A DNA stretch of 64,000 nucleotides from an uncultured Lachnospiraceae bacterium (GCA_947176965.1 CAMWSU010000001.1:68888-132887), one strand, 5' to 3'. Counted from the stretch's first letter, positions 3,454 to 20,346 are shown. The notes: generated from the sequence alone by a model not told the origin. Made by a program: numbers and translations.

Positions 3454-4167
3454 ATGAGGGATAAAACAAATCGCGATCCTAAAAGGGAAATGACACGGGA
3501 GACGGACGGGAACGAAAAGAAACCCGAACGAAAAATACTCGGCTCGGAAGGTGAACTGATCTATGTTATGACGAAGATCGGACAGGTTATCATCCTGAAT
3601 CTTCTGTGGCTGGTATCCTGTATCCCGATCATTACGATCGGTACGGCGACAACGTCTCTGTATTACGCAATGATGAAAAATATCCGCAGAAACCGGAGTT
3701 ATCCGACCACCGAATATATTGCTTCTTTTAAGCGGACGTTTTTAAGCGGCAGTATTCTGACAGCGGCGATGGCAGTGTGGCTCTTTGCGTTGTATCATCT
3801 CCGGCTGATCGCGTTGGACCAGGGAACGGAGACAGGCGTTTTTCTAAGCCGCACTTATATCACACTCATGATCGTAACGGCGGGCATTGCAGTGTATTTG
3901 TTTCCGGTGCTGTCAAGGTTTACGATGAAGCTCTCCTCTATGGTGAAGCTGGCGTTTGTCATGGCGGTGCGGTATATCGGATTTACCATATTGATCCTTG
4001 CGGGAACGGGTCTGCTTGCGTGGCTGATCTTTCGCTATCTGCCCATGGCGACGATTCTCTTTCTGCCGGGAATGTGGTGTTATGTATGCACATTCATGAT
4101 AGAGCGGGCACTGCGAAGATACATGCCGAAGCCCGACGGCAATGAGGACGCGTGGTATTACGAATAA
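3454..4167 (+). CDS. DUF624/YesL-like integral membrane protein (copy 1)
   Basis: ILNLLWLVSCIPIITIGTATTSLYYAMMKNIRRN is the hallmark N-terminal segment of YesL-type proteins found beside sugar ABC systems. Several TM helices. The start is uncertain (3454 or 3490). Confidence 0.75.
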   Translation: MRDKTNRDPKREMTRETDGNEKKPERKILGSEGELIYVMTKIGQVIILNLLWLVSCIPIITIGTATTSLYYAMMKNIRRNRSYPTTEYIASFKRTFLSGSILTAAMAVWLFALYHLRLIALDQGTETGVFLSRTYITLMIVTAGIAVYLFPVLSRFTMKLSSMVKLAFVMAVRYIGFTILILAGTGLLAWLIFRYLPMATILFLPGMWCYVCTFMIERALRRYMPKPDGNEDAWYYE

Positions 4168-4168
4168 A

Positions 4169-4223
4169 AAAGAATGGCGCAAAGCGCCATTCTTTCGAAG
4201 AATTCGCCTTTGGCGGATGCTTC
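4169..4223 (+). repeat. Double-hairpin intergenic module, copy A (second copy at 43508-43563)
   Basis: It begins right after stop TAA 4165-4167. Hairpin 1 is AGAATGGCGC-AAA-GCGCCATTCT and hairpin 2 is GAAGAATTCGCC-TTT-GGCGGATGCTTC. The ~60 nt align with the copy downstream of rnj at roughly 80% identity by eye. Confidence 0.7.
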
Positions 4224-4259
4224 CGGGACAGAGAAATTTCCTATAAGTTAAAAAGCGCA

Positions 4260-4283
4260 ACAAAGAAGAGCTCTTCTTTGTTT
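4260..4283 (+). terminator. Rho-independent terminator (perfect 22-nt palindrome + TTT)
   Basis: ACAAAGAAGAGCTCTTCTTTGT followed by TTT. It probably ends the GH26-DUF624 transcription unit. Confidence 0.7.
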
Positions 4284-4314
4284 AGTATCAAGTAATCTAT
4301 GATTACTTGATACT
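4284..4314. promoter_or_regulatory. 31-bp palindrome (14-bp arms, 3-nt centre), candidate operator or hairpin overlapping a putative -35
   Basis: AGTATCAAGTAATC-TAT-GATTACTTGATACT. The right arm contains TTGATA (4307-4312), and a weak -10 ATGAAT lies 17 nt downstream. It is upstream of the long ABC operon. Confidence 0.4.
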
Positions 4315-4382
4315 AAAGGGATGAACGGAATGAATATTTTCATATATGATTTTTGCAGGTGATAGAAAGGCTGGGTATCAAG

Positions 4383-7300
4383 ATGAGACAGGGGAAAACA
4401 AAAAAGAAATGGATGGCGGCGGTATTGACGGTGGCAGAGCTTTTTAGCGTTGTGCAGCTTGCGGCGATCAATGTCCGTGCGGAGTCTCTGATGACACAGG
4501 AGGAGTGCAAGGAAATTGTCAGCACGTATTCCGTGACCGATTCCGTTCCGGGCTACAGTGAGTATCTGGAAGCGCATGCCGGAGCAGCGCGTCCGCAGCG
4601 TGAGATTGCGGTGGATGCAGGGGACTATAGCTGCTACATGGAAAACGACGTGGAGATGACGCCGGTGATTATAACCGACTATGAGGGGATGAGCGGCGAT
4701 GCGGTTCTGACAACGGAGAACGCCTATGTAGAATACAAGGTGGACGTGCCGGAGACGGGGCTATACGAGCTTTCCTTGGAATATTACCCCGTGGAAGGCA
4801 AGAATTCCGAGATTCAGAGAAGCTTCTTTGTGGACGGAGAACTTCCTTATGGGGAGCTTTCTCTTGTCGAGTTTTCCCGTGTGTGGTCAACGGATGTTGC
4901 ACAGGCAAGCTTTGCGGACGGCATCTATGATGTAGAGTGGAACAGGGACGTGCAGGGCAATGATATGAAGCCGACGTCGGTGGAAATTCCTGAGTGGACG
5001 GTTGCGAGCCTCTATGATAACAATGGTTACATTACGGAGCCGTTATCGGTTTACCTTGAGCAGGGTACACATACGATCACGATCAATTCGCAGAGAGAGC
5101 CGATGCTCTTACGCAGGCTGATCCTATCTAACAGCGAGCCGGTCAGAAGCTACGCTGAGGTGAAAGCGGCGTGGGATGCGCAGGGTGCGCAGCCGACAAG
5201 CGGACAGAATATCATGGTCCAGGCGGAGAATGCGTCAAAGACGTCCTCCCAGATGCTTTATCCGAAGCAGGATCAGTCTTCCCCGGCAGTTTCGCCGAGC
5301 AGTGCAAAGGCGCTTCTGAACAACAGTATCGGCGGCGAGAGCTGGAGCGATGCGGGACAATGGATCGAATGGGAGTTCACGGTGCCGGAATCGGGCTATT
5401 ATGAAATTTCCATGTTTGATAAACAGAGCTTCATGCGCGGAATTTATGTGTCGCGCAAGATTATGATTGATGGCGTAGTGCCGTTTGAAGAAATGTCCGA
5501 TTACGGATTTACCTATTCTTCCAGCTGGCGCATGGATACGCTTGAGGATGCGGATGGGAATCCTTATCAGTTCTATCTGGAGGCGGGCAGACACACGCTC
5601 CGCATGGAGGTTGTGCTTGGTGAGTTTTCCAGTGTCATTGCCGAGGTTCAGGACTGTGTATCTCAATTAAATGCCATTTACAGAAAGCTGATCCGTATCA
5701 CGGGTGTGAGCCCGGATACTTACCGCGATTATCAGATCGCCGCGTCCCTGCCGGGATTGGTAGATGAGATGACGGTGGTACGTGACCAGCTGAATGACGC
5801 GATCGCTGCACTGCGTACGGCGGCGGGAGGCTCCTCTGACAAGGAAACCGTGCTGATCACGATGCGCGACCAGCTTGACTATCTGATCAAAGACGAAGAG
5901 CGGTTCGTAAAGGTTGTCGGTACCTATAAGCAGAACGTCCGGGCATGCGGTAACTGGATCACGCAGGTTATCAGCCAGCCGCTGCAGCTTGACCGGATTT
6001 TCATCCGTTCCTCGGATGTGACGAACAAGGTTTCCTCCAATTCGTTTTGGGATAAGCTGGTATACGAGATTAAAAGATTATTCTACTCCTTTGTGATTGA
6101 TTACAACTCTCTCGGTGCAACGGGAGAAGAGAGCGCCGATAACAAACCGATCACGCTTTGGATCGGAACGGGACGTGATCAGGCGAATGTCATCCGCTCC
6201 CTGATCGACGAATCCTTTACAAGCAAGACAGGTATTAACGTGAACGTACAGCTTGTGGATATGAACACACTGCTGCGCGCCGAGCTTGCGGGAGAGGGAC
6301 CGGATGTGGCGATACAGGTTGCCAATACGAACGGTGTTGCCGGAGCGGTCTTAAATACAGGTAACGATACCCCTGTCAATTATGGACTGCGAAATGCCGT
6401 GCTTGACCTGACGCAGTTTTCGGATTTTGATGAGGTGGCGGCGCGGTTTTATCCGAGTGCGCTGACGGCGTTCTCCTTTGACGGCGCGACCTATGCGCTG
6501 CCTGAGACGCAGACATTCCCTGTGATGTTCTATCGCAAGGATATTTTAACGGAGCTTGGTTTGGAGATTCCGGAGACATGGGATGATGTAAAGGTCATCA
6601 TGTCCGTACTTGCAAAGAACCAGATGGAGTTCGGTATGCTGCCGTCTGAGCAGATCTTCGCAATGCTTCTTTATCAGAACGGAGGAGAGTATTACAACGA
6701 GGGCGGTATTTCCTCAGCGCTTGATTCGGATATTGCAGTGAATACGTTCAAGGAATACTGCGAATATTATACGGATTACGGACTGGATAAGACGACGAGT
6801 GTGGAAGAGCGTTTCCGTACCGGTGAGTGTCCGATCATTATTGCAGATTACACGGTATACAACAATCTGGAGGTGTCCGCGCCGGATATTGCCGGACTGT
6901 GGGATTTCACGATTGTTCCGGGAACCGTACAGGAGGACGGCACGGTCGATCACTCTGTCGGATGTACGGGACTTGCGAGTCTGATCATGGCGGATACCGA
7001 TCAGCCGGATGCATGCTGGGAGTTCTTAAAATGGTGGACCTCCGCTGATGTGCAGGCGCTGTTCGACCGCGAGATGGAATCCTTGATGGGTTCTGCGGCG
7101 CGAGTTGCGACGGCAAATCAGGAGGCATTCGGGCGTATGCCGTGGAAAGTAGATACGTATGAAGCACTGGCGGAAGCGTTCACATGGGTGAAAGGAATTC
7201 CACAGGTACCGGGCGGTTATTATTCCTGGCGTAACGTTAATAACGCGTTCTATACGGTAACGACGGATACCGATACGGCATCGCCCCGCGAGGAGCTGAT

Positions 7301-7394
7301 GGATAAGGTACTCTACATTAACGATGAGATCACCTATAAACGAAAAGAATTTAATCTGATCACATTAGATGACTTAGAGGGGGAGGGCAATTAA
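4383..7394 (+). CDS. Giant (~1000 aa) extracellular solute-binding protein: signal/anchor + two CBM6/35-like beta-sandwich modules + helical linker + family-1 ABC substrate-binding domain
   Basis: Start chosen at MRQGKTKKKWMAAVLTV (signal-like). There are two internally similar modules: AYVEYKVDVPETGLYELSLEYYP... (about 4600-5150) and GQWIEWEFTVPESGYYEISMF... (about 5210-5640). The C-terminal ~415 aa (about 6144-7391, ITLWIGTGRDQANVIRSLIDE...) look like a sugar SBP. Stop TAA abuts the next ATG. Confidence 0.75.
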   Translation: MRQGKTKKKWMAAVLTVAELFSVVQLAAINVRAESLMTQEECKEIVSTYSVTDSVPGYSEYLEAHAGAARPQREIAVDAGDYSCYMENDVEMTPVIITDYEGMSGDAVLTTENAYVEYKVDVPETGLYELSLEYYPVEGKNSEIQRSFFVDGELPYGELSLVEFSRVWSTDVAQASFADGIYDVEWNRDVQGNDMKPTSVEIPEWTVASLYDNNGYITEPLSVYLEQGTHTITINSQREPMLLRRLILSNSEPVRSYAEVKAAWDAQGAQPTSGQNIMVQAENASKTSSQMLYPKQDQSSPAVSPSSAKALLNNSIGGESWSDAGQWIEWEFTVPESGYYEISMFDKQSFMRGIYVSRKIMIDGVVPFEEMSDYGFTYSSSWRMDTLEDADGNPYQFYLEAGRHTLRMEVVLGEFSSVIAEVQDCVSQLNAIYRKLIRITGVSPDTYRDYQIAASLPGLVDEMTVVRDQLNDAIAALRTAAGGSSDKETVLITMRDQLDYLIKDEERFVKVVGTYKQNVRACGNWITQVISQPLQLDRIFIRSSDVTNKVSSNSFWDKLVYEIKRLFYSFVIDYNSLGATGEESADNKPITLWIGTGRDQANVIRSLIDESFTSKTGINVNVQLVDMNTLLRAELAGEGPDVAIQVANTNGVAGAVLNTGNDTPVNYGLRNAVLDLTQFSDFDEVAARFYPSALTAFSFDGATYALPETQTFPVMFYRKDILTELGLEIPETWDDVKVIMSVLAKNQMEFGMLPSEQIFAMLLYQNGGEYYNEGGISSALDSDIAVNTFKEYCEYYTDYGLDKTTSVEERFRTGECPIIIADYTVYNNLEVSAPDIAGLWDFTIVPGTVQEDGTVDHSVGCTGLASLIMADTDQPDACWEFLKWWTSADVQALFDREMESLMGSAARVATANQEAFGRMPWKVDTYEALAEAFTWVKGIPQVPGGYYSWRNVNNAFYTVTTDTDTASPREELMDKVLYINDEITYKRKEFNLITLDDLEGEGN

Positions 7395-8324
7395 ATGGCA
7401 TCAAAGGAAGCTTTGGAAGTGGCCAGAAAGCAAGGAACGCTTGGCTACCGCATTAAGAAAAACAAATCCTGCTATATCATGATGGCGCCGTATTTTATCC
7501 TGTTCTTCCTGTTCACAGTGCTGCCGGTGCTTATGTCGATCGCATTGAGCTTCACATACTTCAACATGCTGGAGTGGCCGACGTTTAACGGATGGAACAA
7601 TTATGTGAAGCTGCTGCTGGAGGATGACATTTTCCTTGTGTCCCTGAAGAATACGCTGATCTTCGCAGTGGTGACGGGACCGGTCAGCTATTTCCTCTGC
7701 CTCATGTTCGCGTGGATCATCAATGAGTTTTCAAGCAAGATCAGAACGCTGCTTACCTTGATCTTTTATGCGCCGTCCATCTGCGGTAACGCATATATGG
7801 TATGGCAGTTGATCTTATCGAGCGACAGATACGGATACTTGAACGGTATTCTGATCAAGCTCGGCATTATCAATGAACAAAAGCTGTGGATGCAGGATGC
7901 GAAGTTTATTCTGCCCTGTCTGATCGTCGTACAGCTCTGGCTCTCGCTTGGTACCGGCTTCCTTTCATTCATTGCCGGTCTGCAGACTGTCGATAAGAGC
8001 CTGTATGAGGCGGCGGCATTGGACGGTGTCAAGAACCGCTGGCAGGAGTTGTGGTATGTGACGCTCCCGTCCATGAGACCGCAGTTGATGTTCGGTGCGG
8101 TTATGCAGATCACACAGTCGTTTGCTGTTGCGGATATTTCCATCCAGTTAGCCGGAAACCCATCCGTCAACTACGCGGGCGCAACGGTCGTCACGCACCT
8201 GTTGGATTACGGTTCCACCCGATTTGATATGGGTTATGCCTCCGCAATCGCAACCGTGCTCTTCCTGCTAATGGTCGGCACGAACAAGCTTGTACAAAAA
8301 CTGTTGAGAAGGGTGGGAGAGTAA
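7395..8324 (+). CDS. Sugar ABC transporter permease (MalF/LplB-like)
   Basis: Six-TM pattern. The EAA-type loop is YEAAALDGVKNRWQELWYVTLPSMRP. It starts 1 nt after the SBP stop. Confidence 0.9.
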   Translation: MASKEALEVARKQGTLGYRIKKNKSCYIMMAPYFILFFLFTVLPVLMSIALSFTYFNMLEWPTFNGWNNYVKLLLEDDIFLVSLKNTLIFAVVTGPVSYFLCLMFAWIINEFSSKIRTLLTLIFYAPSICGNAYMVWQLILSSDRYGYLNGILIKLGIINEQKLWMQDAKFILPCLIVVQLWLSLGTGFLSFIAGLQTVDKSLYEAAALDGVKNRWQELWYVTLPSMRPQLMFGAVMQITQSFAVADISIQLAGNPSVNYAGATVVTHLLDYGSTRFDMGYASAIATVLFLLMVGTNKLVQKLLRRVGE

Positions 8325-9221
8325 GTGGCAAAGACAGCGACGAAGACGAAAAAGAAATATCGTTTTTTTAAGCCAAGGGAAAAGAAGCTGAACCGATCCC
8401 TTGCGGGTAACGGCATCCTGTTCTTTATCATGGGCATCTGCGGTGTATTCATGGCGCTGCCGCTTGTCATGATCATTAACAACTGCTTAAAGCCCTTGGA
8501 CGAATTATTCCAGTATCCGCCGAAAGTATTTGTGCGGAATCCAACGCTTGAGAACTTTACCGATCTGTTTACGGTCATGAGCGATTCGTGGGTACCGTTC
8601 TCGCGATACATATTAAATACGATCATCATTACGGGCGCGGGAACCGTTCTGCATGTTATTTTTGCTTCCCTTGCGGCATATCCGCTTGCGAAGCATGAGT
8701 TTCCGGGAAAGAGCATTCTGTTTAACATGGTCGTGCTCTCGATGATGTTCTCTTGGACGGTTACACAGATTCCGAACTATATGATCATCAGCTGGCTCGG
8801 CATCAACAATAATTATCTGGCGCTGATCCTGCCGGCGTGTCAGTACGGAATGGGACTCTATCTGATGAAGCAGTTCATGGAACAGCTTCCGACATCGCTG
8901 ATGGAGTCGGCAAGACTCGACGGCGCAAGCGAGTATCAGGTGTTTTGGAAGATTGTTATGCCGAACGTAAAACCTGCGTGGCTGACACTGGCAATCTTCC
9001 AGTTCCAGCAGATGTGGGGCAACACCGGTTCGATGTTTTTACGTGACGAGCAGTTAAAGCCGATGCAGTTTGCCTTACAGCAGATTGCAGCCGGAGGTAC
9101 GGCGAGGGCCGGAGCTTCCGCGGCGGTTACTTTTGTTATTGCGGCGGTGCCGATCATCTTCTTCCTTGCATGCCAGAGTAACGTGTTAGAGACGATGACG
9201 ACATCCGGTATGAAAGACTGA
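8325..9221 (+). CDS. Sugar ABC transporter permease (MalG/LplC-like)
   Basis: GTG start directly after TAA, with GGGTGGGAG upstream. The EAA loop is MESARLDGASEYQVFWKIVMPNVKP. Confidence 0.9.
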   Translation: MAKTATKTKKKYRFFKPREKKLNRSLAGNGILFFIMGICGVFMALPLVMIINNCLKPLDELFQYPPKVFVRNPTLENFTDLFTVMSDSWVPFSRYILNTIIITGAGTVLHVIFASLAAYPLAKHEFPGKSILFNMVVLSMMFSWTVTQIPNYMIISWLGINNNYLALILPACQYGMGLYLMKQFMEQLPTSLMESARLDGASEYQVFWKIVMPNVKPAWLTLAIFQFQQMWGNTGSMFLRDEQLKPMQFALQQIAAGGTARAGASAAVTFVIAAVPIIFFLACQSNVLETMTTSGMKD

Positions 9222-9235
9222 TGGGAGGGAGCGCT

Positions 9236-10720
9236 ATGAAAAAGATAAATCGAATCAATAAAATAGCCGCTGCCCTTCTTGCGGCGATCGTGTTCCTGCT
9301 TGTACCGGCTGAGGCAGTACAGGCGGAAGAACTTCCGTATGATACCTACAATTACAACTACCGAGAGGATTTTGTAATCACTCCCGCGGCGTATGTGCCG
9401 AACGGTTCGGTAACGGGCTTAAGCGTCGGGACGACCGATTTTAAGGAGCCGCAGGATTTCTGCGTGGCACCTGATGGATTGGTGTACGTGGCGGATACGG
9501 GCAATAACCGGATCGTGGTCTTAAACCATGAAATGACCGAGATGGTGCGGGAAATTTCCACGTTTGACAGGAACGGCACGGCGGATACGTTTAACGCACC
9601 TTACGGTGTGTGCGTTTCCGAGAATATGGAGCTCTATGTTGCGGATTCCAATAACAGAAGAGTTGTCGTGCTGACGCCGGAAGGTGAGTTCGTCAAGATT
9701 GTGGATAATCCGCAATCGGAAATCTTAGAGGAGAATTTTGAGTTTATTCCGCTTAAGGTAACGGTGGATTATGCAGACCGTGTGTACGTTATTGCTAAAA
9801 ATGCATTTGAAGGAATTTTGGTTTTTGAGAGCAACGGAGAATTTACCGGATATTTCGGAACGATCGAAGTAAAGATCACATTGTGGGAGAAGTTTTGGAG
9901 GAGGCTTGCTAGCAAGGAAGAGCGCTCCAAATCTCAGCTCTATATCCCGACAGAGTTTACGGGAATCGACGTGGATGACGGCGGATTTATTTACGCTTCC
10001 AATATTGATTCGGAAGGCGTGCAGGCAGTCAGACGATTAAACCCGCAGGGAAAGGATGTCATTCAGAAGGGTGAGAACGGGAATGTCGGCGGCGATATTT
10101 TGACCGGTATGTACGGTGATTACAGTGGTCCGTCCCAGATCACGGACGTGGTATATCGCGATAAGGGAATTTATTCCTTGCTTGACAGAAGACGCGGAAG
10201 AATCTTTACTTACGATAAAGAGGGAAATCTTCTCTACATCTTCGGCGGTCTCGGTTCACAGGAAGGAACGTTCAACGTACCTGTTGCAATCGAATCGATC
10301 GATGGGGAGATCATTGTATTAGACGCGTATTATGGCGCAATCTTAAGATTCAAGGAAACCAGATACGGTTCTCTCATCAATGAGGCAGTCGGGCTGCGCT
10401 TCGACGGTGACGAGACGGAAGCGATCGAGAAATGGCAGGAGGTATTACGGTTAGACGGAAACAATGAGCTTGCCAATACCGGTATCGGAAAGGCATATTT
10501 AACGGCGGGAAATAACCGCCTTGCGATGGAATACTTAGAGCTTGGTATGAACCGGAAATATTACTCCATTGCATGGAAACGATACCGAAACGAGCTTTTG
10601 GCAAAGAACATGAACATGATCATGACCGTGGTAGTCGTACTTATCATCGCATGGGTCGTATACCGGAAATTGCGTAAGAAAAAGAAAGGTAAAGCGGACG
10701 GGGAAGGAGGGCTTATTTGA
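9236..10720 (+). CDS. Secreted NHL-repeat beta-propeller protein with TPR-like tail and C-terminal TM anchor
   Basis: ATG 9236 follows GGGAGGGAG. Signal peptide MKKINRINKIAAALLAAIVFLLVPAEAVQA. NHL-type blades (VADTGNNRIVVLN, VADSNNRRVVVLT). C-terminus MIMTVVVVLIIAWVVYRKLRKKKKGK. Confidence 0.75.
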   Translation: MKKINRINKIAAALLAAIVFLLVPAEAVQAEELPYDTYNYNYREDFVITPAAYVPNGSVTGLSVGTTDFKEPQDFCVAPDGLVYVADTGNNRIVVLNHEMTEMVREISTFDRNGTADTFNAPYGVCVSENMELYVADSNNRRVVVLTPEGEFVKIVDNPQSEILEENFEFIPLKVTVDYADRVYVIAKNAFEGILVFESNGEFTGYFGTIEVKITLWEKFWRRLASKEERSKSQLYIPTEFTGIDVDDGGFIYASNIDSEGVQAVRRLNPQGKDVIQKGENGNVGGDILTGMYGDYSGPSQITDVVYRDKGIYSLLDRRRGRIFTYDKEGNLLYIFGGLGSQEGTFNVPVAIESIDGEIIVLDAYYGAILRFKETRYGSLINEAVGLRFDGDETEAIEKWQEVLRLDGNNELANTGIGKAYLTAGNNRLAMEYLELGMNRKYYSIAWKRYRNELLAKNMNMIMTVVVVLIIAWVVYRKLRKKKKGKADGEGGLI

Positions 10721-11352
10721 TGAAACAGTTATTTTCCAAGGACAAATGGAAATATGCATTTTACACCGTAAGCCATCCGGCGGACGGATATTATGAGATT
10801 CGGCACAGAGAACGCGGAAGCGTTCCAATCGCGGTTTTGCTGGTCATTCTCTTTTCAATCAGCTTTTCCATCAACCGCATATCGGCAAGCTTTATTGTCA
10901 ATGACATTGATCCGCTTACCATCAATCTGTTGAGCGAATTGGTTTCGGTCCTTTTGTTATATCTGCTGTTCTGTGTCGGAAACTGGTCGATCACCTGTCT
11001 GATGAACGGCGAGGGCAGATTAAAGGATATTGCGATCGCGCTTGGGTATGCGATGATCCCGATGATTGTCTGCATGAATATCGGAACGATCTTCAGCCAC
11101 GCGGTAGCGGCGGATGAGGGCGCGTTCTACTACATGATCATCGGAATCGGCATCGCTTATGGGGTGTTCATGATGCTGGTGGGAGTCATGGAGGTTCACA
11201 ATTATACATTAGGTAAGACGCTGATCACGATCTTCCTGACCTTTGTGGCAATTTTCATCATTATATTCGTTGTATTGTTGGTAATGGATCTCATCAATCA
11301 GGTAATCGGTTTCTTTTACAGTATTTATCAGGAACTGATTTTCAGGGCGTAA
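10720..11352 (+). CDS. Yip1-domain multi-pass membrane protein
   Basis: ATG overlaps the upstream stop (TGATG at 10718-10722), with GGAAGGAGG upstream. The cytosolic N-terminus (HPADGYYEIRHRERGS) followed by five hydrophobic helices fits the Yip1/YIPF architecture. Confidence 0.7.
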   Translation: MKQLFSKDKWKYAFYTVSHPADGYYEIRHRERGSVPIAVLLVILFSISFSINRISASFIVNDIDPLTINLLSELVSVLLLYLLFCVGNWSITCLMNGEGRLKDIAIALGYAMIPMIVCMNIGTIFSHAVAADEGAFYYMIIGIGIAYGVFMMLVGVMEVHNYTLGKTLITIFLTFVAIFIIIFVVLLVMDLINQVIGFFYSIYQELIFRA

Positions 11353-11367
11353 GGGGGAGGACATAAG

Positions 11368-13947
11368 ATGCGGAAAAGTAAAAAAATTCTGATCGGTGTT
11401 GTAAGCCTTGTCGCTGCAGTCATCCTGATATGGCTTGTATACTATCTGGTACATTTTTATTTTTACAATCACTACAGAGACTATCTCACCTCCTATGATT
11501 ATGAGGAGGGAAAAGAGTTCACGCCGATCGCGGAAAGTAAAGCTGATGTAGAGGGCATGGTGCTTGCCGCACAAAACGGTACGGTAAAGTTGTATGTGAA
11601 TGCGGAGACGGGGGAAGCTGCTTTTGTGGATACCCGCAACGGTCAGATCATCTATACGAACCCGCCGGACGCAGATGACGATGCGATCGCGAATAAGACC
11701 AATACCAATTATATGAAATCCCAGCTGGTCGTGGATTATTTCAATACGGCGAGAACACAGGGAACCTACGATTCTTTCAGCTATTGTATCGAGCAGGGAG
11801 ACCAGCTTGAGATTGAGTCGATTGAAAACGGCGTGCGTTTCATCTATACGCTTGGTGACCTGTCGGCAGCAACGGGTATCGTGCCGATCTATATCAGTAC
11901 GGATGCGCTGGATTCCGTGTGCGCCGTATTGGACGAAGAAGGCGATAAATTTGTGAGAAGCAAATTTAAGGAAAGCAGTGTGGCGGATGATTATATGGAG
12001 TTGTTGGAATCCGCGCAAAGAGGAGCGTCACAGATCCGTAAGCTGAACCGCTATTTTGAGGAGGCGGGTTTCACGCAGGATGACTACAACCGCGAGATGG
12101 AAGGCTCGGGCGTGGAGGGCGCTGTTCCGGTTTCGTTTGAAATCCCGCTGGAGTACCGTTTGGTTGGGGACGCTGTTGAAGTATCCATCCCGATGAGTGC
12201 GGTAAAGGAGAACGGAGGCGGTGCGATCTACCGTATTTCCCTGTTACGTTTCCTTGGCGCGGCGGGAATCGACGAGAGCGGTTATCTCCTTGTGCCGAAC
12301 GGTTCCGGGTCCATCATCAATTTTAACAACGGAAAGACGACGGCGCAGCCGTATTCGGAATACGTTTATGGAATTGATCCGCTTGCAGCGGAGCTGACGG
12401 TCCGTGAGAATACCGAGAATGTCAAGATGGCATTGTTCGGTATCTGCCGTGAGGACAGTTCTGTGTTCGCTACGATCGAGAGAGGCGGGGCAATGGCATA
12501 TTTAAGCGCGAGCGTCTCGGGCAGGATCAATGAGTATAATTATGTTTATCCGACTTTCGTGTTAAGAGGAAACGAAAAGTTAGAGATGTTCGGTACGACG
12601 GGTAATGAGGCGGACTTACCGATCGTAGAGAAGAATTATTATGATCAGAATCTGACGGTCAGATATACGATGTTAACCGAGGAGCATGCTGGCTATGCGG
12701 GAGCGGCGAATTATTATCGGGACCGCTTGATCAGCGAGGGTGTGCTGACACCGAACAATGCGGACGGGGACATCAAATTCTATTATGACGTCATTGGCGG
12801 GATTGAAAAGATCAAGTTTTTCCTCGGTGTGCGTTACAGAGGCCTTTACGCCATGACCGATTTTGACGAAGCGATCGAAATATCGAATGACCTTGCGGCA
12901 AACGGGATTTCCAATCAGGTCATGAATTATCAGGGCTGGTGTAACGGCGGCTATTATCATGATGTTCTGAATAAGATCAAGGTTCCGTGGCGCTTGGGAG
13001 GAAGATCGGGCTTAGAGGACTTAAGCGCAGCGGTTGCGGCAAACGGCGGAACATTCTATGCAGATGTGGCGCTCCAGCGTGTGTCGGAAATTTCCGATCG
13101 TTACAGCGAAGGAAATGAGACGTCCAGATATTACGGTGCAGGTTATATTGCGGAGTTTGGATTGGTCAATCCGTCAACACTGCGTCAGACATCGGGCTTA
13201 GGATGGTCGGAGAATCGGTTTTATCTGGTTTCACCGAAGTTCCTTGTGCGTTATGTAGAGCGATTCGCAGACAAGATTGACCGATATGACATTGGCGGTA
13301 TTTCTTTAAGAGATCTCGGCAATCAGCTTCATTCCGATAAAAAGCGGACGAATGTCATTGACCGTACCGCGGCGCAGGATGTCGTGGAGGCGGAGCTTCA
13401 GAATTTGGAAGACACCGGTAAGCTGTTGATGGTAAATGCGGGAAATGATTACTCCTTTGCGTATGCGAATGACATCATCAACGCGCCGCTGACGGATAAT
13501 GATTACTATATTGTGGACGAGACGATTCCGTTCTATGAGATGATCATACACGGCTGCATTGATTACTCCGGTTCGGTCATCAACTTAAGCGATACTTTCG
13601 ACAGAACGGAGACCGTTCTGAATTTGATCGAGACGGGCGCGTCGCCGCACTTTGTATTCACGTGGGAGAATTCCAATGAGATGAAGAACACGGGTATCAG
13701 CCGTTTTTACTCGACCACGTATGAGAATTGGAAGCAGGAGGCGCTTGCCGTTTACGACGAGGTGAATGAGGTATTAAGTCACGTGAACGGAGCGACGATC
13801 GTGAACCATGTAATCTACGCAAACGGCGTACGTGCCATCACCTATAGCAACGGCGTCACGATTTATGTAAATACGGGTACTGCGAGCCAGACGGTGGACG
13901 GTGTGACCGTTCCGGCACGAGGCTATGAGATGGGAGGCGTTCATTGA
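11368..13947 (+). CDS. 859-aa N-terminally anchored extracellular protein of unknown function (DUF5696-like, label from memory)
   Basis: N-terminal TM helix ILIGVVSLVAAVILIWLVYYLV, then a large soluble region with no catalytic motif I can assign. GGGGGAGGA RBS. The stop overlaps the next start (TGATG at 13945-13949). Confidence 0.6.
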   Translation: MRKSKKILIGVVSLVAAVILIWLVYYLVHFYFYNHYRDYLTSYDYEEGKEFTPIAESKADVEGMVLAAQNGTVKLYVNAETGEAAFVDTRNGQIIYTNPPDADDDAIANKTNTNYMKSQLVVDYFNTARTQGTYDSFSYCIEQGDQLEIESIENGVRFIYTLGDLSAATGIVPIYISTDALDSVCAVLDEEGDKFVRSKFKESSVADDYMELLESAQRGASQIRKLNRYFEEAGFTQDDYNREMEGSGVEGAVPVSFEIPLEYRLVGDAVEVSIPMSAVKENGGGAIYRISLLRFLGAAGIDESGYLLVPNGSGSIINFNNGKTTAQPYSEYVYGIDPLAAELTVRENTENVKMALFGICREDSSVFATIERGGAMAYLSASVSGRINEYNYVYPTFVLRGNEKLEMFGTTGNEADLPIVEKNYYDQNLTVRYTMLTEEHAGYAGAANYYRDRLISEGVLTPNNADGDIKFYYDVIGGIEKIKFFLGVRYRGLYAMTDFDEAIEISNDLAANGISNQVMNYQGWCNGGYYHDVLNKIKVPWRLGGRSGLEDLSAAVAANGGTFYADVALQRVSEISDRYSEGNETSRYYGAGYIAEFGLVNPSTLRQTSGLGWSENRFYLVSPKFLVRYVERFADKIDRYDIGGISLRDLGNQLHSDKKRTNVIDRTAAQDVVEAELQNLEDTGKLLMVNAGNDYSFAYANDIINAPLTDNDYYIVDETIPFYEMIIHGCIDYSGSVINLSDTFDRTETVLNLIETGASPHFVFTWENSNEMKNTGISRFYSTTYENWKQEALAVYDEVNEVLSHVNGATIVNHVIYANGVRAITYSNGVTIYVNTGTASQTVDGVTVPARGYEMGGVH

Positions 13948-14864
13948 TGAAGAAGAAGAAAAGAAAAATGACTCTCACAAGAAAACGTGCCATTACCGGT
14001 TATCTCTTTATCATGCCATGGCTGATCGGTTTCCTGTGGTTTTATGTACGAAGCTTGTTTATGACGATGCAGTTTTCCTTGAACGTACTGGAGGTAAGGC
14101 CGGGAGGCGGTTACACGCTGACGTTTGCGGGACTTGATAATTTTATTTATGCGTTCCGCGCACATGCATCGTTTAAGCAGATATTGACAACCTCTGTTGC
14201 AAATATGCTGATTGATGTACCGCTGATCACATTTTTCAGCTTGTTCATGGCACTGCTGCTCAATAAGAAATTCCATGGACGAACACTCGTCCGGGCAATC
14301 TTCTTCCTGCCGGTTATTTTGAATTCGGAAGCGATTACGGATGCGATGGATTTGGCGCGCAGCATGATGAGCGGCGGAATGTCCAATGCGGCTGCAGAGG
14401 TCGCGGAGGCGGCTTCAAGCGGCGTGAGTATCGAATACTATATTCAAATGTTCGGTTCGCTCGGTCTGCCGATGGGGATGATTGAGTATATTATGGGCGC
14501 GGTTGCCCGAATCAGTGAGATCATCAATGCCTCAGGTGTACAGATTATTATCTTTATCGCAGCGCTGCAGTCCATACCGGGTTCCATGTATGAGGTAGCA
14601 AAGATCGAGGGTGCGACGGGGTATGAAACGTTCTGGAAGGTAACGTTCCCGATGGTAATGCCCCACATTATCACAAACGTGGTCTACACCGTGGTGGACA
14701 GTTTTGCAGATTCCGAAGTTGTCGAGCTGGCGTATGACACGGCGTTTACCAATAATAATTACGGATTGAGCTCCGTAATGAGTCTGGTATCTACCGTGAT
14801 CACCTGTTTGATTCTGGTGATCGTATGCCGCTTCATACAGAAGCGTGCGTTCTACTATAACTAA
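13947..14864 (+). CDS. Sugar ABC transporter permease (MalF-like), second importer
   Basis: TM pattern and EAA loop YEVAKIEGATGYETFWKVTFPMVMP. The ATG overlaps the upstream stop. Confidence 0.9.
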   Translation: MKKKKRKMTLTRKRAITGYLFIMPWLIGFLWFYVRSLFMTMQFSLNVLEVRPGGGYTLTFAGLDNFIYAFRAHASFKQILTTSVANMLIDVPLITFFSLFMALLLNKKFHGRTLVRAIFFLPVILNSEAITDAMDLARSMMSGGMSNAAAEVAEAASSGVSIEYYIQMFGSLGLPMGMIEYIMGAVARISEIINASGVQIIIFIAALQSIPGSMYEVAKIEGATGYETFWKVTFPMVMPHIITNVVYTVVDSFADSEVVELAYDTAFTNNNYGLSSVMSLVSTVITCLILVIVCRFIQKRAFYYN

Positions 14865-14881: not shown

Positions 14882-15919
14882 ATGGCGAAGACAACAAAGG
14901 CAACAAAGGCAACAAAGAATACAAAAACATTTTCCGTACAAAAGCTGAAAGAACAGTACATGGCGCTTAAGACGGATACACAGTTTGCCAATGACAGAAA
15001 GCGCTGGCAGTCCAATGGTAAGGGCTTTCTCATCGGTTTGTTGAAGTTTTTATTGATCGTCGGTGTCAGCTATGTGATCTTAGGTCCGGTGCTTGGCATT
15101 GTTACAAGTTCTTTTTTCTCCAATGCCGATAACTATAACCCGATGGTATATATGATTCCGCAGGAGCCGACGCTGGAGCGCTATTCAAAGGCAAGCGCGT
15201 ATCTGGACTACTGGAAAACTCTGAGCAATTCCATGATCTATTCGGTTACGCTCATGATGATTCAGGTGTTTATCTGCTCCATGGTAGGATATGGTTTTGC
15301 GAGATATAAATTTCCGCTCAAGAATTTGTTTTTTGCGTTAGTCGTCGTGATGATCGTCATTCCGACGCACACGATCATGCTTCCGCTGTATATGACGTTT
15401 GCGAATTTTGATGTGCTCGGTATTATCAGGCTCATCAAAGGAGCGCCGGTCAATATTTTATCAACACCGATTCCGGTATATATTATGACGGTGTTCGGGT
15501 GCGGTTTACGTTCGGGACTTTATATCTACATTTTCAATCAGTTCTTCCGCGGGCTGCCGAAGGAGATCGAGGAGGCGGCGTTTGTGGACGGCGCGGGCAC
15601 ATGGTACACCTACTTCCGTATCATGCTTGTTAATGCAATGCCTTCTGTCATTACCGTGGCGATCTTTTCCATGGTATGGCAGTATAATGATACATTTTAC
15701 GGAAAGTTATTTTTGATCAGCGATGATCTGATAATCAGTAAGAAGATTGCGGGGTTGACGGCAAATATAGCGACGAATGAGAAGATTTATGATCCGGCCA
15801 TTCAGCAGTTATATTTAGACGCCGGAATCGTGCTCGTAATGCTTCCTGTGGTTATCATCTATGTCGTTCTTCAAAAATACTTTATAGAGGGAGTTGAGCG
15901 AAGCGGTATTGTCGGTTAA
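14882..15919 (+). CDS. Sugar ABC transporter permease (MalG-like) with basic N-terminal extension
   Basis: EAA loop EEAAFVDGAGTWYTYFRIMLVNAMP. AAAGGAGG RBS. The N-terminus KTTKATKATKNTK is encoded by short 9-nt repeats. Confidence 0.9.
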   Translation: MAKTTKATKATKNTKTFSVQKLKEQYMALKTDTQFANDRKRWQSNGKGFLIGLLKFLLIVGVSYVILGPVLGIVTSSFFSNADNYNPMVYMIPQEPTLERYSKASAYLDYWKTLSNSMIYSVTLMMIQVFICSMVGYGFARYKFPLKNLFFALVVVMIVIPTHTIMLPLYMTFANFDVLGIIRLIKGAPVNILSTPIPVYIMTVFGCGLRSGLYIYIFNQFFRGLPKEIEEAAFVDGAGTWYTYFRIMLVNAMPSVITVAIFSMVWQYNDTFYGKLFLISDDLIISKKIAGLTANIATNEKIYDPAIQQLYLDAGIVLVMLPVVIIYVVLQKYFIEGVERSGIVG

Positions 15920-15968: not shown

Positions 15969-17876
15969 ATGAAAAAGTTGAAGGCAAAAAAACTCTTAGC
16001 ATTATTCCTTGCAGCAGCGATGACCTTTGCAATGGTTGGCTGCGGCGGCAATGATGCCGAAACAGACGCACCGTCTGATGCGAATCAGACGGACGACGCA
16101 GCACCGACGGAGGCTCCGACAGAAGCACCGACGGAAGCACCTTCCGATGATGTGACACCCGCAACGACTGAGGCGAGCATCGATTTCGAGGATGGTGCAT
16201 TTGGTTTCGTATATTGCGATACCAAAATTGCAGGCGGCACCGGTCCTGCAGAGCTTTCCGTAGTAGATTATAACGGCTCCAAAGCATTACAGGTAGTGCC
16301 GGGTGGAAAGTTCCCCTGTGTGGCTATGCCGGTTGACCAGCTTTTGGGTGATCAGGCAGGCAATGTGGCGACGATCGATGTGACGATCGGTACAACAAGC
16401 CCGGACGGTATCTTCTATGCCGTATCCGGAAAGCTTTACAGCGTGATCAGCGACAATAAGGATGTTGATCAGCCATGGAGCGTTTACCTTGAGGCGGCAA
16501 ACCCGAAGACTGTGACCTATACGGTTCCTGACGGCAGATCCTTTGCTGCGGGGGATGTATTTGCAATCTCCATGGAAGTTGATAACGCAAAGAGTGAAGC
16601 CGGTGCGCCGACAACCCTTTACATCGACAACATTACTTTTAAGGATGCATCCGGCAATGTGCTTGCAGCGGATACTTCTGTTGTCGTAGAGGCAGCGGCT
16701 GAAGAGGCAGACCCGAACCTTTTGGTATTAAAGGATGTGGTTGAGATTGACGGCTTTGCGGCAAGCGCAGGCGGCTGGGCGCAGGACGGTATCGATCTGA
16801 CCGAGGAGCAGAAGGCACTCTTTGTACCGGGCTCCGTGATTGAGATTGATTACAACGGCGCTACACCGGTATGGCTTGTAGCAGTCAGCGCGGATGAAAA
16901 TCCGAACCCGCTGGGTACATGGCTGCGCGGCGTGGATCAGAATACCTTTGCTCCGAACGCTTATGTAGGCAACGGCAAGATTCAGTACCGTTATGAGGAT
17001 CTGGTAGAGTTCTTTGGAGAGGACTTCGGTCAGTATGTGAAGACGTTACAGTGCGAGGCAGCCAATGACTGGGAAGTATTCGGTATGAGAGTCGGCACGG
17101 ACAGCGGTCTGGTAACGGTAGGCGGCACGGAGCTTGAGGGCTTTGCAAAAAGCGCAGGCGGCTGGGCGCAGGACGGTATCGACCTGACAGATGAGCAGAG
17201 AGCACTCCTTGTACCCGGTTCCGTTATTGAAATCGAGTATAGCGGCGAGACACCGGTATGGCTTGTGGCAGTCAGCGCGGATGAAAATCCGAACCCGTTG
17301 GGCACATGGCTGCGCGGCGTAAATCAGGAAACCTTCGAGGTTGACGGTGCGGTAGGTGACGGCGTGGTTCAGTACACCTATGAGCAGTTAGTACCGTACT
17401 TCGGAGAGGACTTCGGTCAGTATGTGACGACGTTACAGTGCGAAGCTGCCAATGATTGGGAAGTCTTCAGCGTGAGGGTTGGAAAGCCGATCGTTCCGGT
17501 CAAGAATGCAACGGAGCTTGAGGGCTTTGCAAAAAGCGCAGGCGGCTGGGCACAGGATGGTATCGACCTGACAGATGAGCAGAGAGCACTCCTTGTACCG
17601 GGCTGTGTGATCAATATTGAGTACAGCGGTGATACACCGGTATGGCTTGTAGCAGTCAGCGCGGATGAAAATCCGAACCCGTTGGGCACATGGCTGCGCG
17701 GCGTGAACCAGGATACCTTCGAGGTTGACGGCGCAGTAGGAGACGGTATCGTTCAGTACACCTACGAGCAGTTAGTACCGTACTTCGGCGAGGACTTTGG
17801 TCAGTATGTGACGACGTTACAGTGTGAAGCGGCGAATGACTGGGAAGTTTACAGCGTGTCTGTAGGTATGCAGTAA
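15969..17876 (+). CDS. Lipoprotein: (PTEA)n linker + CBM-like domain + three tandem 128-129-aa repeats of an unknown domain
   Basis: Lipobox AMVGC-GG and linker APTEAPTEAPTEAPSDD. An N-terminal domain ends TLYIDNITFKD. Then come three copies of ...GFAKSAGGWAQDGIDLTDEQRALLVPGSVIEIEYSG.TPVWLVAVSADENPNPLGTWLRGV...TLQCEAANDWEV.... The start may be TTG 15978, because the SD abuts ATG 15969. Confidence 0.75.
   Translation: MKKLKAKKLLALFLAAAMTFAMVGCGGNDAETDAPSDANQTDDAAPTEAPTEAPTEAPSDDVTPATTEASIDFEDGAFGFVYCDTKIAGGTGPAELSVVDYNGSKALQVVPGGKFPCVAMPVDQLLGDQAGNVATIDVTIGTTSPDGIFYAVSGKLYSVISDNKDVDQPWSVYLEAANPKTVTYTVPDGRSFAAGDVFAISMEVDNAKSEAGAPTTLYIDNITFKDASGNVLAADTSVVVEAAAEEADPNLLVLKDVVEIDGFAASAGGWAQDGIDLTEEQKALFVPGSVIEIDYNGATPVWLVAVSADENPNPLGTWLRGVDQNTFAPNAYVGNGKIQYRYEDLVEFFGEDFGQYVKTLQCEAANDWEVFGMRVGTDSGLVTVGGTELEGFAKSAGGWAQDGIDLTDEQRALLVPGSVIEIEYSGETPVWLVAVSADENPNPLGTWLRGVNQETFEVDGAVGDGVVQYTYEQLVPYFGEDFGQYVTTLQCEAANDWEVFSVRVGKPIVPVKNATELEGFAKSAGGWAQDGIDLTDEQRALLVPGCVINIEYSGDTPVWLVAVSADENPNPLGTWLRGVNQDTFEVDGAVGDGIVQYTYEQLVPYFGEDFGQYVTTLQCEAANDWEVYSVSVGMQ
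16735..17873 (+). repeat. Three in-frame tandem repeats (periods 387 and 384 nt) inside the lipoprotein gene
   Basis: The landmark GCGGCTGGGC recurs at 16771, 17158 and 17542. Copies 2 and 3 are nearly identical at the DNA level over long stretches. Copy 1 is more diverged. Confidence 0.9.
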
Positions 17877-17937: not shown

Positions 17938-17979
17938 CACTAATGATATTCATGAAAAATGAAGGAGGAATCAAATAGC

Positions 17980-19437
17980 ATGAAATATTATAAGAAATTA
18001 CTTGCGCTCGGTCTCAGCGTGGTTATGCTTGCAGGTATGACGGCGTGCGGCGGCGGTGATGATAAGCCGGCGGCAAGCGATAACAATAATACACCTGCAG
18101 CAAGCGGTAACAATTCATCCGGCAACGATGACAATACGTCTGCGGACAATTCTGACGGCGGTAATACAGTGGGTCCGGCAGCCGAGACGAGAACGATCAG
18201 GATCGGTACATGGTACGATCACTTCTATGACAGTACGAACGAGAGCATTTGGGATGATACAACTGTATCCGATGAGGAGTTTGCGCAGGCGCATTTTGAT
18301 ATTGTCAAAGAGGTTGAGGAGAAGTACAATGTAAGAATCGAGTTCGTCAACCTGACCTTTAACGGTGTAAAAGAGTCCATTAACACCTCCATCTTAGCAG
18401 GACATCCGGACTGTGATATTTATGAGGTGGATTTGGGCTTCGGTATCGCGGCAGCATTGAACGGCTATGCAGTGAATCTGCGGGAGCTCGTTCCTGATGC
18501 GGATATTTGCAACGACCAGATGATCTTTGCGCCGACCAATATCGGTCTGAAGGATGGCAGTATTTATTTGTTTACGGCTGTTTCTAAGGAGGCAGAGCTT
18601 TATAACACCTATATGCTTGCTTACAATAAGCAGATTTTGGATGATGCGGGTCTTGAGTATCCCGAGGATCTGTATGAGAGAGGCGAGTGGACATGGGATA
18701 AGTGGCGTGAGTATATGATCCAGTTGACACAGGATACAAACGGTGACGGCGTGATCGATCAGTACGGCTACTGCTCCCGCTGGGATTTCACCGTGTATAA
18801 TCTCTTAATGTCGAATGGCACGACGATGGCATCCACCGATACAGAGACACTTTCCAGCCCGGAAGTTGGTGAAGTGATTGACTTCATGTACAATATGTGG
18901 GCGGTGGACAGAGTGGCAAAGCCGTGGAATTCGGATGATTTTGACTCCAACCAGAACTCTTATACTGACGGCAATATTGCATTTTGGGCAACTGCAGCAT
19001 GGATTTCCGATGCAAACAAAGATATTGATTGTGACTTCGACGTCGTATGGTGCCCGTGGCCGATCGGACCGAACGGAAATCAGGAGACCAATAATCTCCG
19101 TAACCTGTCCTCAGGTAATGCGTATATGATCCCGACCGGTGTGGAAGATCCGGAATTCGTTTACCATGTATTTGAGGATTGGGCGAACTGGTATCATGGC
19201 GATACTGAATTCCGTGATTCTAACGTAACATGGTGGGAAGACTGTGCGATGACCGAAGAGAACTTTGCGGTTATGGAATATCTCGGTTCGAGAGATCAGT
19301 TTGACCTTTGGAATTCCTTCGGGCTGAAATGGGATGATGACTGGGTAAAAGTCTTAAATGGCGAGATGACCCCGGCACAGTTCCAGGAGACATGGAAGCA
19401 GCCGATGCAGGATTCCCTGGATAGCTTCTTTAAGTAA
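17980..19437 (+). CDS. ABC transporter substrate-binding lipoprotein (manno-oligosaccharide-binding candidate)
   Basis: ATG 17980 follows GAAGGAGGA. Lipobox LAGMTAC-GG and a low-complexity S/N/D linker, then a family-1 SBP-like body of about 485 aa. Its position next to the two permeases resembles characterised Roseburia-type mannan loci. Confidence 0.85.
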   Translation: MKYYKKLLALGLSVVMLAGMTACGGGDDKPAASDNNNTPAASGNNSSGNDDNTSADNSDGGNTVGPAAETRTIRIGTWYDHFYDSTNESIWDDTTVSDEEFAQAHFDIVKEVEEKYNVRIEFVNLTFNGVKESINTSILAGHPDCDIYEVDLGFGIAAALNGYAVNLRELVPDADICNDQMIFAPTNIGLKDGSIYLFTAVSKEAELYNTYMLAYNKQILDDAGLEYPEDLYERGEWTWDKWREYMIQLTQDTNGDGVIDQYGYCSRWDFTVYNLLMSNGTTMASTDTETLSSPEVGEVIDFMYNMWAVDRVAKPWNSDDFDSNQNSYTDGNIAFWATAAWISDANKDIDCDFDVVWCPWPIGPNGNQETNNLRNLSSGNAYMIPTGVEDPEFVYHVFEDWANWYHGDTEFRDSNVTWWEDCAMTEENFAVMEYLGSRDQFDLWNSFGLKWDDDWVKVLNGEMTPAQFQETWKQPMQDSLDSFFK

Positions 19438-20230: not shown

Positions 20231-20346
20231 AAAGAAAGCTACGGCCGTTTTTTTACGGCTGTTCATATAAAGTATTGTTACATAGATGGATTTGGTATTA
20301 ATCAGGTATGTTCCATGAGGGATACAGAGGGAAGCATAGGTGGGGC

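Follow-up and report, generated by a model that had tools for sequence, protein, structure and literature searches.

The window examined here is a 64,000-nucleotide (nt) stretch of DNA from an uncultured Lachnospiraceae bacterium (GCA_947176965.1, CAMWSU010000001.1:68888-132887), in which three consecutive genes adjoin those of ATP-binding cassette (ABC) sugar importers. The trio encodes an NHL/TPR protein of 494 amino acids (aa; 9236-10720), a Yip1-family membrane protein of 210 aa (10720-11352) and a DUF5696 protein of 859 aa (11368-13947). It is followed by the genes for permease B1 (305 aa, 13947-14864; BPD_transp_1, 1.5e-8) and permease B2 (345 aa, 14882-15919; BPD_transp_1, 3.4e-14) and, farther downstream, by the gene for an ordinary CUT1 solute-binding protein (SBP; 492 aa, 17959-19437; SBP_bac_1, 2e-14), all on the plus strand. 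As the initial annotation had described, the genes of the trio are joined by stop/start overlaps or short gaps. The TGA of the NHL gene shares the TGATG at 10718-10722 with the ATG of the Yip1 gene, the DUF5696 stop codon shares the TGATG at 13945-13949 with the ATG of permease B1, and the Yip1 and DUF5696 genes are separated by 15 nt containing GGGGGAGG. The ATG of the NHL gene at 9236 has GGGAGGGAG on its 5' side, and an alternative, longer open reading frame (ORF) begins at 9221. Identical trio proteins are recorded in a Lachnospiraceae metagenome-assembled genome under the names 'hypothetical protein', 'gluconolactonase' and 'YIP1 family protein'. A megablast search of a plasmid collection with the trio gave no match.

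Gene order was compared among about 150 loci with DUF5696 identities of 28-95%. An orthologous set of 80 loci, one genome per species and 48-95% identical in DUF5696, came from Lachnospiraceae, Oscillospiraceae, Butyrivibrio, a Faecalibacterium-labelled genome and Clostridium sp. KNHs205, and the order NHL-Yip1-DUF5696-permease B1-permease B2 was kept in all of them. Where the contig sufficed, the 5' part of the block consisted of glycoside hydrolase (GH) family GH26, DUF624 (missing in a few loci), a large binding protein and a second permease pair (A1 and A2), and the part 3' of DUF5696 consisted of B1, B2, a CBM65 protein and a binding protein. Since this order shows orthology only, distant relatives were sampled as well. 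Two of four representatives at 28-33% identity (those at 28-31%) had the same eight-gene block, which adjoined GH113 and GH9 genes in one and GH106, YdjC and oxidoreductase genes in the second. In the other two, a single NHL-Yip1 fusion protein of about 720-730 aa precedes DUF5696 and two permeases, and the large binding protein is missing upstream; one of these loci continued with a binding protein and a GH29 fucosidase.

The fused clade was used to seed a scan that returned a diverse set of 79 metagenome loci, whose genes were labelled by iterative searches with the window proteins. NHL and Yip1 domains were counted automatically directly 5' of DUF5696 in 63 of the 67 loci with enough upstream sequence (48 fused and 15 separate), and the four uncounted loci had over-extended ORF starts, so that the pair was present in every such locus. 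Two permeases lay directly 3' of DUF5696 in every locus with enough flank except one (L091). The initial annotation had made its grouping of the three genes depend on their co-occurrence elsewhere, and the trio was kept in all other genomes examined. The junctions were conserved as well. In the 80-locus set, the junction of DUF5696 with the following permease gene was measured in 72 loci, of which 49 had an overlap of 1 or 4 nt; among diverse loci, 22 of 64 had an overlap of 4 nt there. At the junction of the NHL and Yip1 genes, 37 of 69 orthologous loci had a 1- or 4-nt overlap. Because they were kept across orthologous loci, the stop/start overlaps are not due to chance.

In L091 (12744-15804), no permease pair was recognized 3' of DUF5696; an unlabelled 379-aa ORF occupies that position, and one permease and one binding protein were found upstream. 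This arrangement could be a rearrangement or contain a divergent permease.

The ordinary SBP (430-480 aa) was found in every one of the 29 diverse loci whose flanks reached at least 8.5 kb on both sides. Among the orthologous mannan loci with long flanks, all 49 had the large binding protein and permeases A1 and A2; of those 29 diverse loci only 13 had them, on either side of the core. A1 and A2 share only 22% identity with B1 and B2, and they co-occurred with the large binding protein in nearly every locus having either. The large binding protein with A1/A2 is, thus, an optional second importer. The initial annotation had placed the trio between two importers and had taken the large binding protein, A1, A2 and the trio as a six-gene core. 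The wider sampling revises both points: the invariant partners of the trio are B1, B2 and the ordinary SBP, and the trio belongs to the second, downstream importer because the large-binding-protein block is present in fewer than half of the diverse loci and on no fixed side.

The enzymes encoded next to the module varied. Pfam searches of 99 flanking ORFs gave LacI, GH10, GH27/36, GH3, GH5, GH43, GH1, GH130 and oxidoreductases, and GH29, GH106, GH113/GH9 and GH26 genes also flanked the module across the loci. Since the flanking enzymes differ among loci, the module is not mannan-specific. Varied flanks and multiple copies are what a reusable uptake module would be expected to show. Several contigs contained two or three copies: among digester contigs, Ga0134096_1000020 had three copies of the NHL::Yip1-DUF5696-permease module (L109, L144 and L161), and Ga0134096_1000005 had two (L091 and L126). 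Two or three copies per contig resemble the multiplied polysaccharide utilization loci of Bacteroidota.

By sequence, the transport proteins have the make-up of a CUT1-type ABC sugar importer, which combines two permeases having EAA loops with a family-1 SBP. All four permeases of the window have PF00528 and EAA loops, read from the translations as EVAKIEGATGYETFWKVTFPMVMP (EAA-type) in B1 and EEAAFVDGAG in B2, and both binding proteins belong to SBP_bac_1/8. The ordinary SBP is likely the receptor of the B importer. No sugar-ABC ATPase was found among the approximately 50 largest window ORFs scanned, in which the sole ABC_tran match was UvrA (52670-55552). The EAA loops are kept in both permease pairs and, therefore, a shared ATPase is presumably encoded elsewhere, as is usual in Bacillota.

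The initial annotation had suggested the label DUF5696 for the 859-aa protein, and the Pfam search bore this out: PF18952 matched residues 238-853 with an E-value of 4e-199 and 663.5 bits (cut-off 25.6), spanning profile positions 2-612 of 612. The family is large: clustering at 50% identity gave at least 4,706 clusters (E <= 0.001), 2,733 of them below 1e-30, and no mention of it was found in the literature searched. Hydropathy analysis detected a single N-terminal transmembrane segment (residues 7-25) preceded by RKSKK, which agrees with the N-terminally anchored, extracellular protein that had been described. The segment would act as an uncleaved signal anchor and give a type II protein with its bulk outside the cell. 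An N-terminal anchor was present in 104 of 108 diverse relatives, down to 28% identity, whose alignment was used for AlphaFold2 modelling, for the family profile and for conservation counts.

The AlphaFold2 model (pLDDT 94.5, pTM 0.92) consists of an N-terminal beta-sandwich, a (beta/alpha)8 barrel and a C-terminal beta-sandwich. Foldseek searches of the PDB placed GH129 enzymes first, led by the Zobellia 3,6-anhydro-D-galactosidase 5opq (1.5e-32) and 8rzk (2.2e-31), with Bifidobacterium NagBb (5wzr) at 1e-25 and TM-scores on the target of 0.66-0.70. GH101 endo-alpha-N-acetylgalactosaminidases followed (approximately 4e-21 to 6e-17), and then a Flavonifractor galactosaminidase and GH36 alpha-galactosidases at approximately 1e-14. 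Remote GH129 homology was also found at the sequence level. The 108-relative profile matched 8rzk/5opq at 5.5e-9 and 5wzn at 1.3e-6 among PDB sequences; a single DUF5696 sequence gave no match there, and GH129 was reached only by the family profile. NagBb-like fragments in a protein collection had precomputed matches to both PF18952 and PF12905. A NagBb-like sequence was rebuilt from a frameshifted contig, which makes its residue numbering approximate, and hhalign aligned the DUF5696 family to it with a probability of 95% (E 3.7e-8). Motifs common to the two were GW..G after a barrel strand and [IV]P[FL]Y..V.H. The fold matches and sequence-level homology together make DUF5696 a distant relative of GH129/GH101 and not an orphan fold. 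The initial annotation had been unable to place this protein, and a GH129/GH101/GH36-type fold now gives it a place.

GH129, which includes the alpha-N-acetylgalactosaminidase NagBb of Bifidobacterium bifidum and the 3,6-anhydro-D-galactosidase of Zobellia galactanivorans, and GH101 have the three-domain fold in common with DUF5696. DUF5696 proteins differ from GH129 in their N-terminal membrane anchor, in approximately 240 extra N-terminal residues and in an essentially complete genomic linkage to the NHL, Yip1 and ABC permease genes.

Several residues of DUF5696 are nearly invariant among the 108 relatives. By the DSSP trace of the model, R666 (conserved in 107), W524 (102), D657 (101), D717 (101), N693 (99) and Y695 (95) each lie just after a barrel strand; D337 (103) lies in the N-domain. 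Residues at the barrel-strand ends probably mark the catalytic face of the modelled barrel. From the near-invariance of these residues we conclude that DUF5696 conserves a functional pocket. The initial annotation had stated that a match to a characterized enzyme family with a defined role would count against a surface module of unknown mechanism. Such a match was found in part: the GH129-type fold and homology are there, and the canonical catalytic dyad of that family, considered below, is not kept.

The other two proteins agreed with their initial description. The NHL protein matched PF01436 in two stretches (1.2e-13, 50.8 bits against a cut-off of 20) and weakly matched TPR_11 (5.5e-4). Its hydropathy profile has a signal-like segment at the N-terminus and a C-terminal transmembrane segment (461-479) that precedes RKLRKKKKGK, a layout that would correspond to a cleavable signal peptide, a C-terminal anchor and a lysine-rich cytoplasmic tail. 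The Yip1 protein matched PF04893 over profile positions 3-173 of 173 (4.9e-16; 59.5 bits, with a cut-off of 28.6) and has five hydrophobic segments. Each of the three trio proteins is, thus, predicted to be anchored in the membrane and to have most of its mass outside the cell. NCBIfam had no model for the Yip1 or DUF5696 protein and gave only sub-threshold matches to the NHL protein.

The name 'gluconolactonase' in the NCBI record of the NHL protein was considered and set aside. It is probably an over-annotation, because the SMP-30/gluconolactonase model (PF08450, SGL) scored 22.3 bits, below its cut-off of 26.3; the top structural matches were binding-type NHL domains and not lactonases.

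A natural NHL::Yip1 fusion homologue was modelled to stand in for the two window proteins. The fusion family had 877 matches at E<=1e-10, and nearly all of the matches listed had both Yip1 and NHL domains, many with TPR as well; the source names included Limnochordia, Halanaerobiales and Natronospora cellulosivora. The homologue was modelled as one rigid body (pLDDT 93.3, pTM 0.87). Residues 37-376 form its propeller, four TPR-like helices come next, and a long helix at 442-477 precedes the Yip1 helices. The long helix corresponds to the C-terminal anchor of the window NHL protein. Foldseek placed the NHL domains of TRIM71, Brat and TRIM2, which are binding-type propellers, first (1e-18 to 1e-12). 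By this model, the NHL protein carries a six-bladed NHL propeller. The NHL and Yip1 proteins of the window may likewise pack as a single membrane platform, an arrangement that is only inferred for them because the model is of a homologue.

These observations are best accommodated if the trio proteins are obligate extracytoplasmic accessory subunits of the downstream importer formed by B1, B2 and the ordinary SBP. This explanation fits best because of the linkage to the B permeases, the gene fusions, the overlaps, the predicted anchoring, the conserved pocket and the varied flanks; even so, we put the chance that it is correct at about even. For the Yip1 protein there is one bacterial precedent, YknW (PMC4887032), which is described below. 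In such an assembly, the C-terminal helix of the NHL protein and the five-helix Yip1 protein would form one membrane platform, which would present the NHL propeller and TPR head at the outer face. DUF5696, as a type II protein, would use the pocket of its GH129/GH101-like ectodomain to engage incoming glycan fragments at the membrane surface and might trim or debranch them with non-canonical residues, for which D657 and D717 are candidates. The processed glycan would then be passed on to the binding protein and the permeases, and the module would serve as a generic front end for mannan at the window locus and for xylan and other glycans elsewhere. Whether the modelled pocket would cleave glycans or bind them alone we regard as roughly balanced, with trimming or debranching favoured.

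Several results weigh against an accessory role of this kind, among them the fate of the GH129 catalytic residues. We take D435 and E478 of NagBb to be the nucleophile and the acid/base, and counting through the NagBb alignment and the rebuilt sequence gave Asp at 435 (AYLD) and Glu at 478 (SSSEE). In the hhalign alignment, D435 fell on S646 in a stretch of low confidence, three positions before D649, and E478 fell on N690, so that the GH129 acid/base Glu is not kept at the aligned position of the window protein. Column 649 contained D in 72 of the 108 relatives (67%), T in 17, S in 8 and N in 4. Column 690, with adjacent columns G-G-N, was variable (S 23, D 19, E 17 and N 15). Only 15 of 108 sequences had an acid at both positions. 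With the acid/base column variable and D649 in 72 of 108 relatives, canonical retaining catalysis is not conserved. By sequence, the canonical GH129 dyad is not a family feature, and the window protein, with D649 and N690, is without the acid/base. D or E at 690 was found in 21 of the 36 sequences without D649 and in 15 of the 72 with it (Fisher p 1.8e-4, for sequences that are related to one another), which is suggestive only of a tendency toward mutual exclusion, as if one carboxylate might fit either site.

D657 with D717 as an alternative catalytic pair is a guess. A dyad of the GH27/36 type, in which D649 or D657 would pair with D717, is a candidate idea; hhalign of the DUF5696 family against the GH27 alpha-galactosidase of a neighbouring gene gave a probability of 0.3% and no usable alignment. 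The pocket residues also stay invariant while the glycan context shifts, which is odd for a substrate-specific enzyme. No conserved extracytoplasmic insertion that could dock the trio was found in B1 or B2, and the extracytoplasmic loop of B1 (residues 131-180) is variable; since that loop is not conserved, no docking surface can be named. Finally, the mannan system of Roseburia intestinalis, which imports manno-oligosaccharides, lists no such proteins (PMC6385246), as the initial annotation had said of the characterized pathway.

A bolder form of the proposal, which we think less likely than not, is that NHL-Yip1, DUF5696, the permeases and the SBP constitute an undescribed class of multi-subunit ABC importer. 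DUF5696 would then cleave with catalytic residues other than those of GH129, would represent a new glycoside hydrolase family, and would process long glycan fragments or thread them straight into the transporter. No description of a trio-importer module was found in literature on DUF5696, on Yip1 or NHL proteins with ABC transporters, or on beta-mannan.

The main rival, which we think rather unlikely, makes DUF5696 a non-catalytic 'heavy chain' that stabilizes, assembles or positions the permease pair, with NHL-Yip1 as an assembly factor. The type II topology with a glycosidase-fold ectodomain, the degenerate dyad, the conserved translational coupling to permease B1 and the independence of the module from glycan type would all suit such a role, and there are two precedents. 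The SLC3 proteins 4F2hc and rBAT are single-pass type II proteins with an alpha-amylase-family ectodomain of absent or orphan activity and are ancillary to a polytopic transporter (PMC8537225). Their likeness to DUF5696, in the type II anchor and glycosidase-fold ectodomain, is an analogy only; they are eukaryotic, have a GH13 fold and not a GH129-like one, and are disulfide-linked to an SLC7 secondary transporter and not to an ABC transporter. YknW, a Yip1-family protein, is reported to modulate the assembly of the Bacillus ABC transporter YknXYZ (PMC4887032). Like the window protein, it is a bacterial membrane protein of the Yip1 family whose gene accompanies those of an ABC transporter, a likeness at the level of the shared Pfam family, and YknWXYZ differs in being a MacB-type exporter with a membrane-fusion protein and without an NHL propeller or glycosidase-fold partner. 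The pocket argues against a heavy chain: D657, D717, R666, N693, W524 and D337 stay near-invariant down to 28% identity, which suits a working ligand-binding or catalytic site better than a decayed one.

It is improbable that DUF5696 is instead the extracellular alpha-galactosidase of the pathway, debranching galactomannan or galactoglucomannan independently of the transporter, with NHL and Yip1 as unrelated neighbours. The idea draws on the alpha-acting structural relatives (GH129, GH101 and GH36 alpha-galactosidases) and on the absence of GH36 or GH27 among the window ORFs scanned, where R. intestinalis uses RiGH36 (PMC6385246). However, the trio and permeases also adjoin GH10, GH43, GH29 and GH106 genes, some loci already have GH27/36 genes, the canonical dyad is incomplete, and the linkage of DUF5696 to NHL, Yip1 and the permeases is essentially complete, with gene fusions. 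We consider it very improbable that the trio acts on the cell's own envelope, locally remodelling or binding a polymer of the wall to let large oligosaccharides through to the importer. Pocket residues that are invariant across differing nutrient glycans and the presence of the family in lineages named Halanaerobiales and Limnochordia would be in keeping with this, but the idea is pure inference with no supporting homology, and the enzymes with the closest folds have O-glycans, carrageenan and alpha-galactosides as substrates and not wall polymers. Least credible is a surface sensor that signals polymer to the locus regulator, since, despite the large ectodomains and a nearby regulator (LacI at 20308-21369; LacI or AraC elsewhere), the trio is without a cytoplasmic output domain and has only short lysine-rich tails inside, the regulator type differs among loci, and the tight coupling is to permease genes and not to regulator genes.

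The genes around the trio and the B importer fit a beta-mannan locus. The large ORFs listed from 276 to about 26,000 were on the plus strand throughout, and the remainder of the window consists of housekeeping genes. Upstream of the trio, Pfam searches detected GH130 (276-1496), GH26 with CBM35 (1912-3450) and DUF624 (3454-4167), followed by the large binding protein of 1013 aa (4353-7394, from TTG 4353; the likely start is ATG 4383; SBP_bac_8), permease A1 (7395-8324; BPD_transp_1) and permease A2 (8325-9221; BPD_transp_1). Downstream are a lipoprotein with three CBM65 modules (15969-17876), then the ordinary SBP, a second DUF624 gene (19595-20230), the LacI regulator, and genes for GH130, a GDSL esterase and a GH1::mannose-6-phosphate isomerase. 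The two DUF624 genes encode membrane proteins and flank the ten-gene transporter block, and both positions are kept in most of the 80 orthologous loci. The last of the downstream genes (23755-26076) is a 773-aa ORF with a complete GH1 domain (E 4.6e-139) and a type-I phosphomannose isomerase with catalytic and cupin domains, which would unite the last hydrolytic step and mannose-6-phosphate isomerization in one protein. Comparable GH1::isomerase ORFs were found in L042 (772 aa) and L045 (734 aa).

From the large to the ordinary binding protein, intergenic gaps are at most 82 nt and no convincing plus-strand terminator was seen between genes. A single transcript of approximately 15 kb covering these genes is, therefore, plausible. 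A strong terminator-like hairpin (4168-4196) lies directly 3' of the first DUF624 gene, within the 215-nt gap 5' of the large binding-protein gene. That gap has three perfect or near-perfect palindromes, of which the hairpin is one, AACAAAGAAGAGCTCTTCTTTGTT at 4259-4282 is the second and an inverted repeat with 14-nt arms at 4285-4315, AGTATCAAGTAATC-TA-TGATTACTTGATACT, is the third. The third palindrome was rejected as a shared operator, as the window has a single copy and the only other locus with it was the closest relative (L001); it may act as an operator at the level of the strain.

The large binding protein has its SBP_bac_8 match (2.9e-21) at residues 620-904, and its C-terminal domain matches Lin1841 (2.1e-18). 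The N-terminal approximately 570 aa (4383-6100) matched no PDB sequence and reached no Pfam threshold, with weak hits to Golvesin_C and GH115_C. This region has an internal repeat (31% over 68 aa, E 1e-6), which looks like two carbohydrate-binding-type modules followed by a helical stretch. The hydrophobic segment at the N-terminus ends in VRA-ES and may be a cleaved signal rather than an anchor. The CBM65 lipoprotein has a lipobox (MVGC in the translation), a Pro/Thr/Glu/Ala-rich linker and CBM65_1 matches in three stretches (5.1e-48), and its gene lies between permease B2 and the cognate binding protein. It was present in nearly all of the 80 orthologous loci that extended far enough and was not labelled in the diverse loci. 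It is an add-on of the mannan-type lineage and may capture glycans at the surface for the B importer.

The beta-mannan loci of R. intestinalis encode RiGH26, RiMnBP/MPP1/MPP2, two GH130 enzymes, an epimerase, esterases and GH1, GH3, GH36 and GH113 enzymes (PMC6385246). The window resembles them in GH26-CBM35, two GH130 genes, the GDSL esterase, GH1, LacI, and CUT1 SBPs and permeases. It differs in having two permease pairs where R. intestinalis is described with one importer (PMC6385246), the 1000-aa binding protein, the triple-CBM65 lipoprotein and the trio, which is absent from the described system. Unlike R. intestinalis, the window had no GH36 or epimerase among the ORFs scanned.

In the Sus-like 'utilisome' of Bacteroidota, surface glycan-binding proteins and a glycosidase are assembled on the SusCD transporter. 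The trio-importer module is similar in concept, as a locus-encoded transporter with putative glycan-binding and glycosidase-fold surface partners that is duplicated and reused for many glycans. The two differ in that the SusCD transporter is a TonB-dependent protein of the outer membrane and the module is an inner-membrane ABC importer; they share no homology.

Bacillota are major degraders of fibre in the gut, and the usual picture of their glycan uptake has a single binding protein, a pair of permeases and a shared ATPase. The present analysis adds three extra surface proteins that are genomically locked to one importer class. The component families (ABC importer, NHL, Yip1 and the GH129-like fold) are known, and their obligate combination is undescribed in the literature searched. 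Should the bolder form of the proposal be true, the importer class would be widespread in gut and digester Bacillota as an inner-membrane counterpart of the Sus utilisome. The module recurs beside genes for mannanases, xylanases, fucosidases and rhamnosidases. Were its proteins to assemble in the proposed way, it would represent a new transporter architecture and would supply a role for a large domain of unknown function; one more glycoside hydrolase family might be gained, and which gut Bacillota import which fibres could be better predicted.

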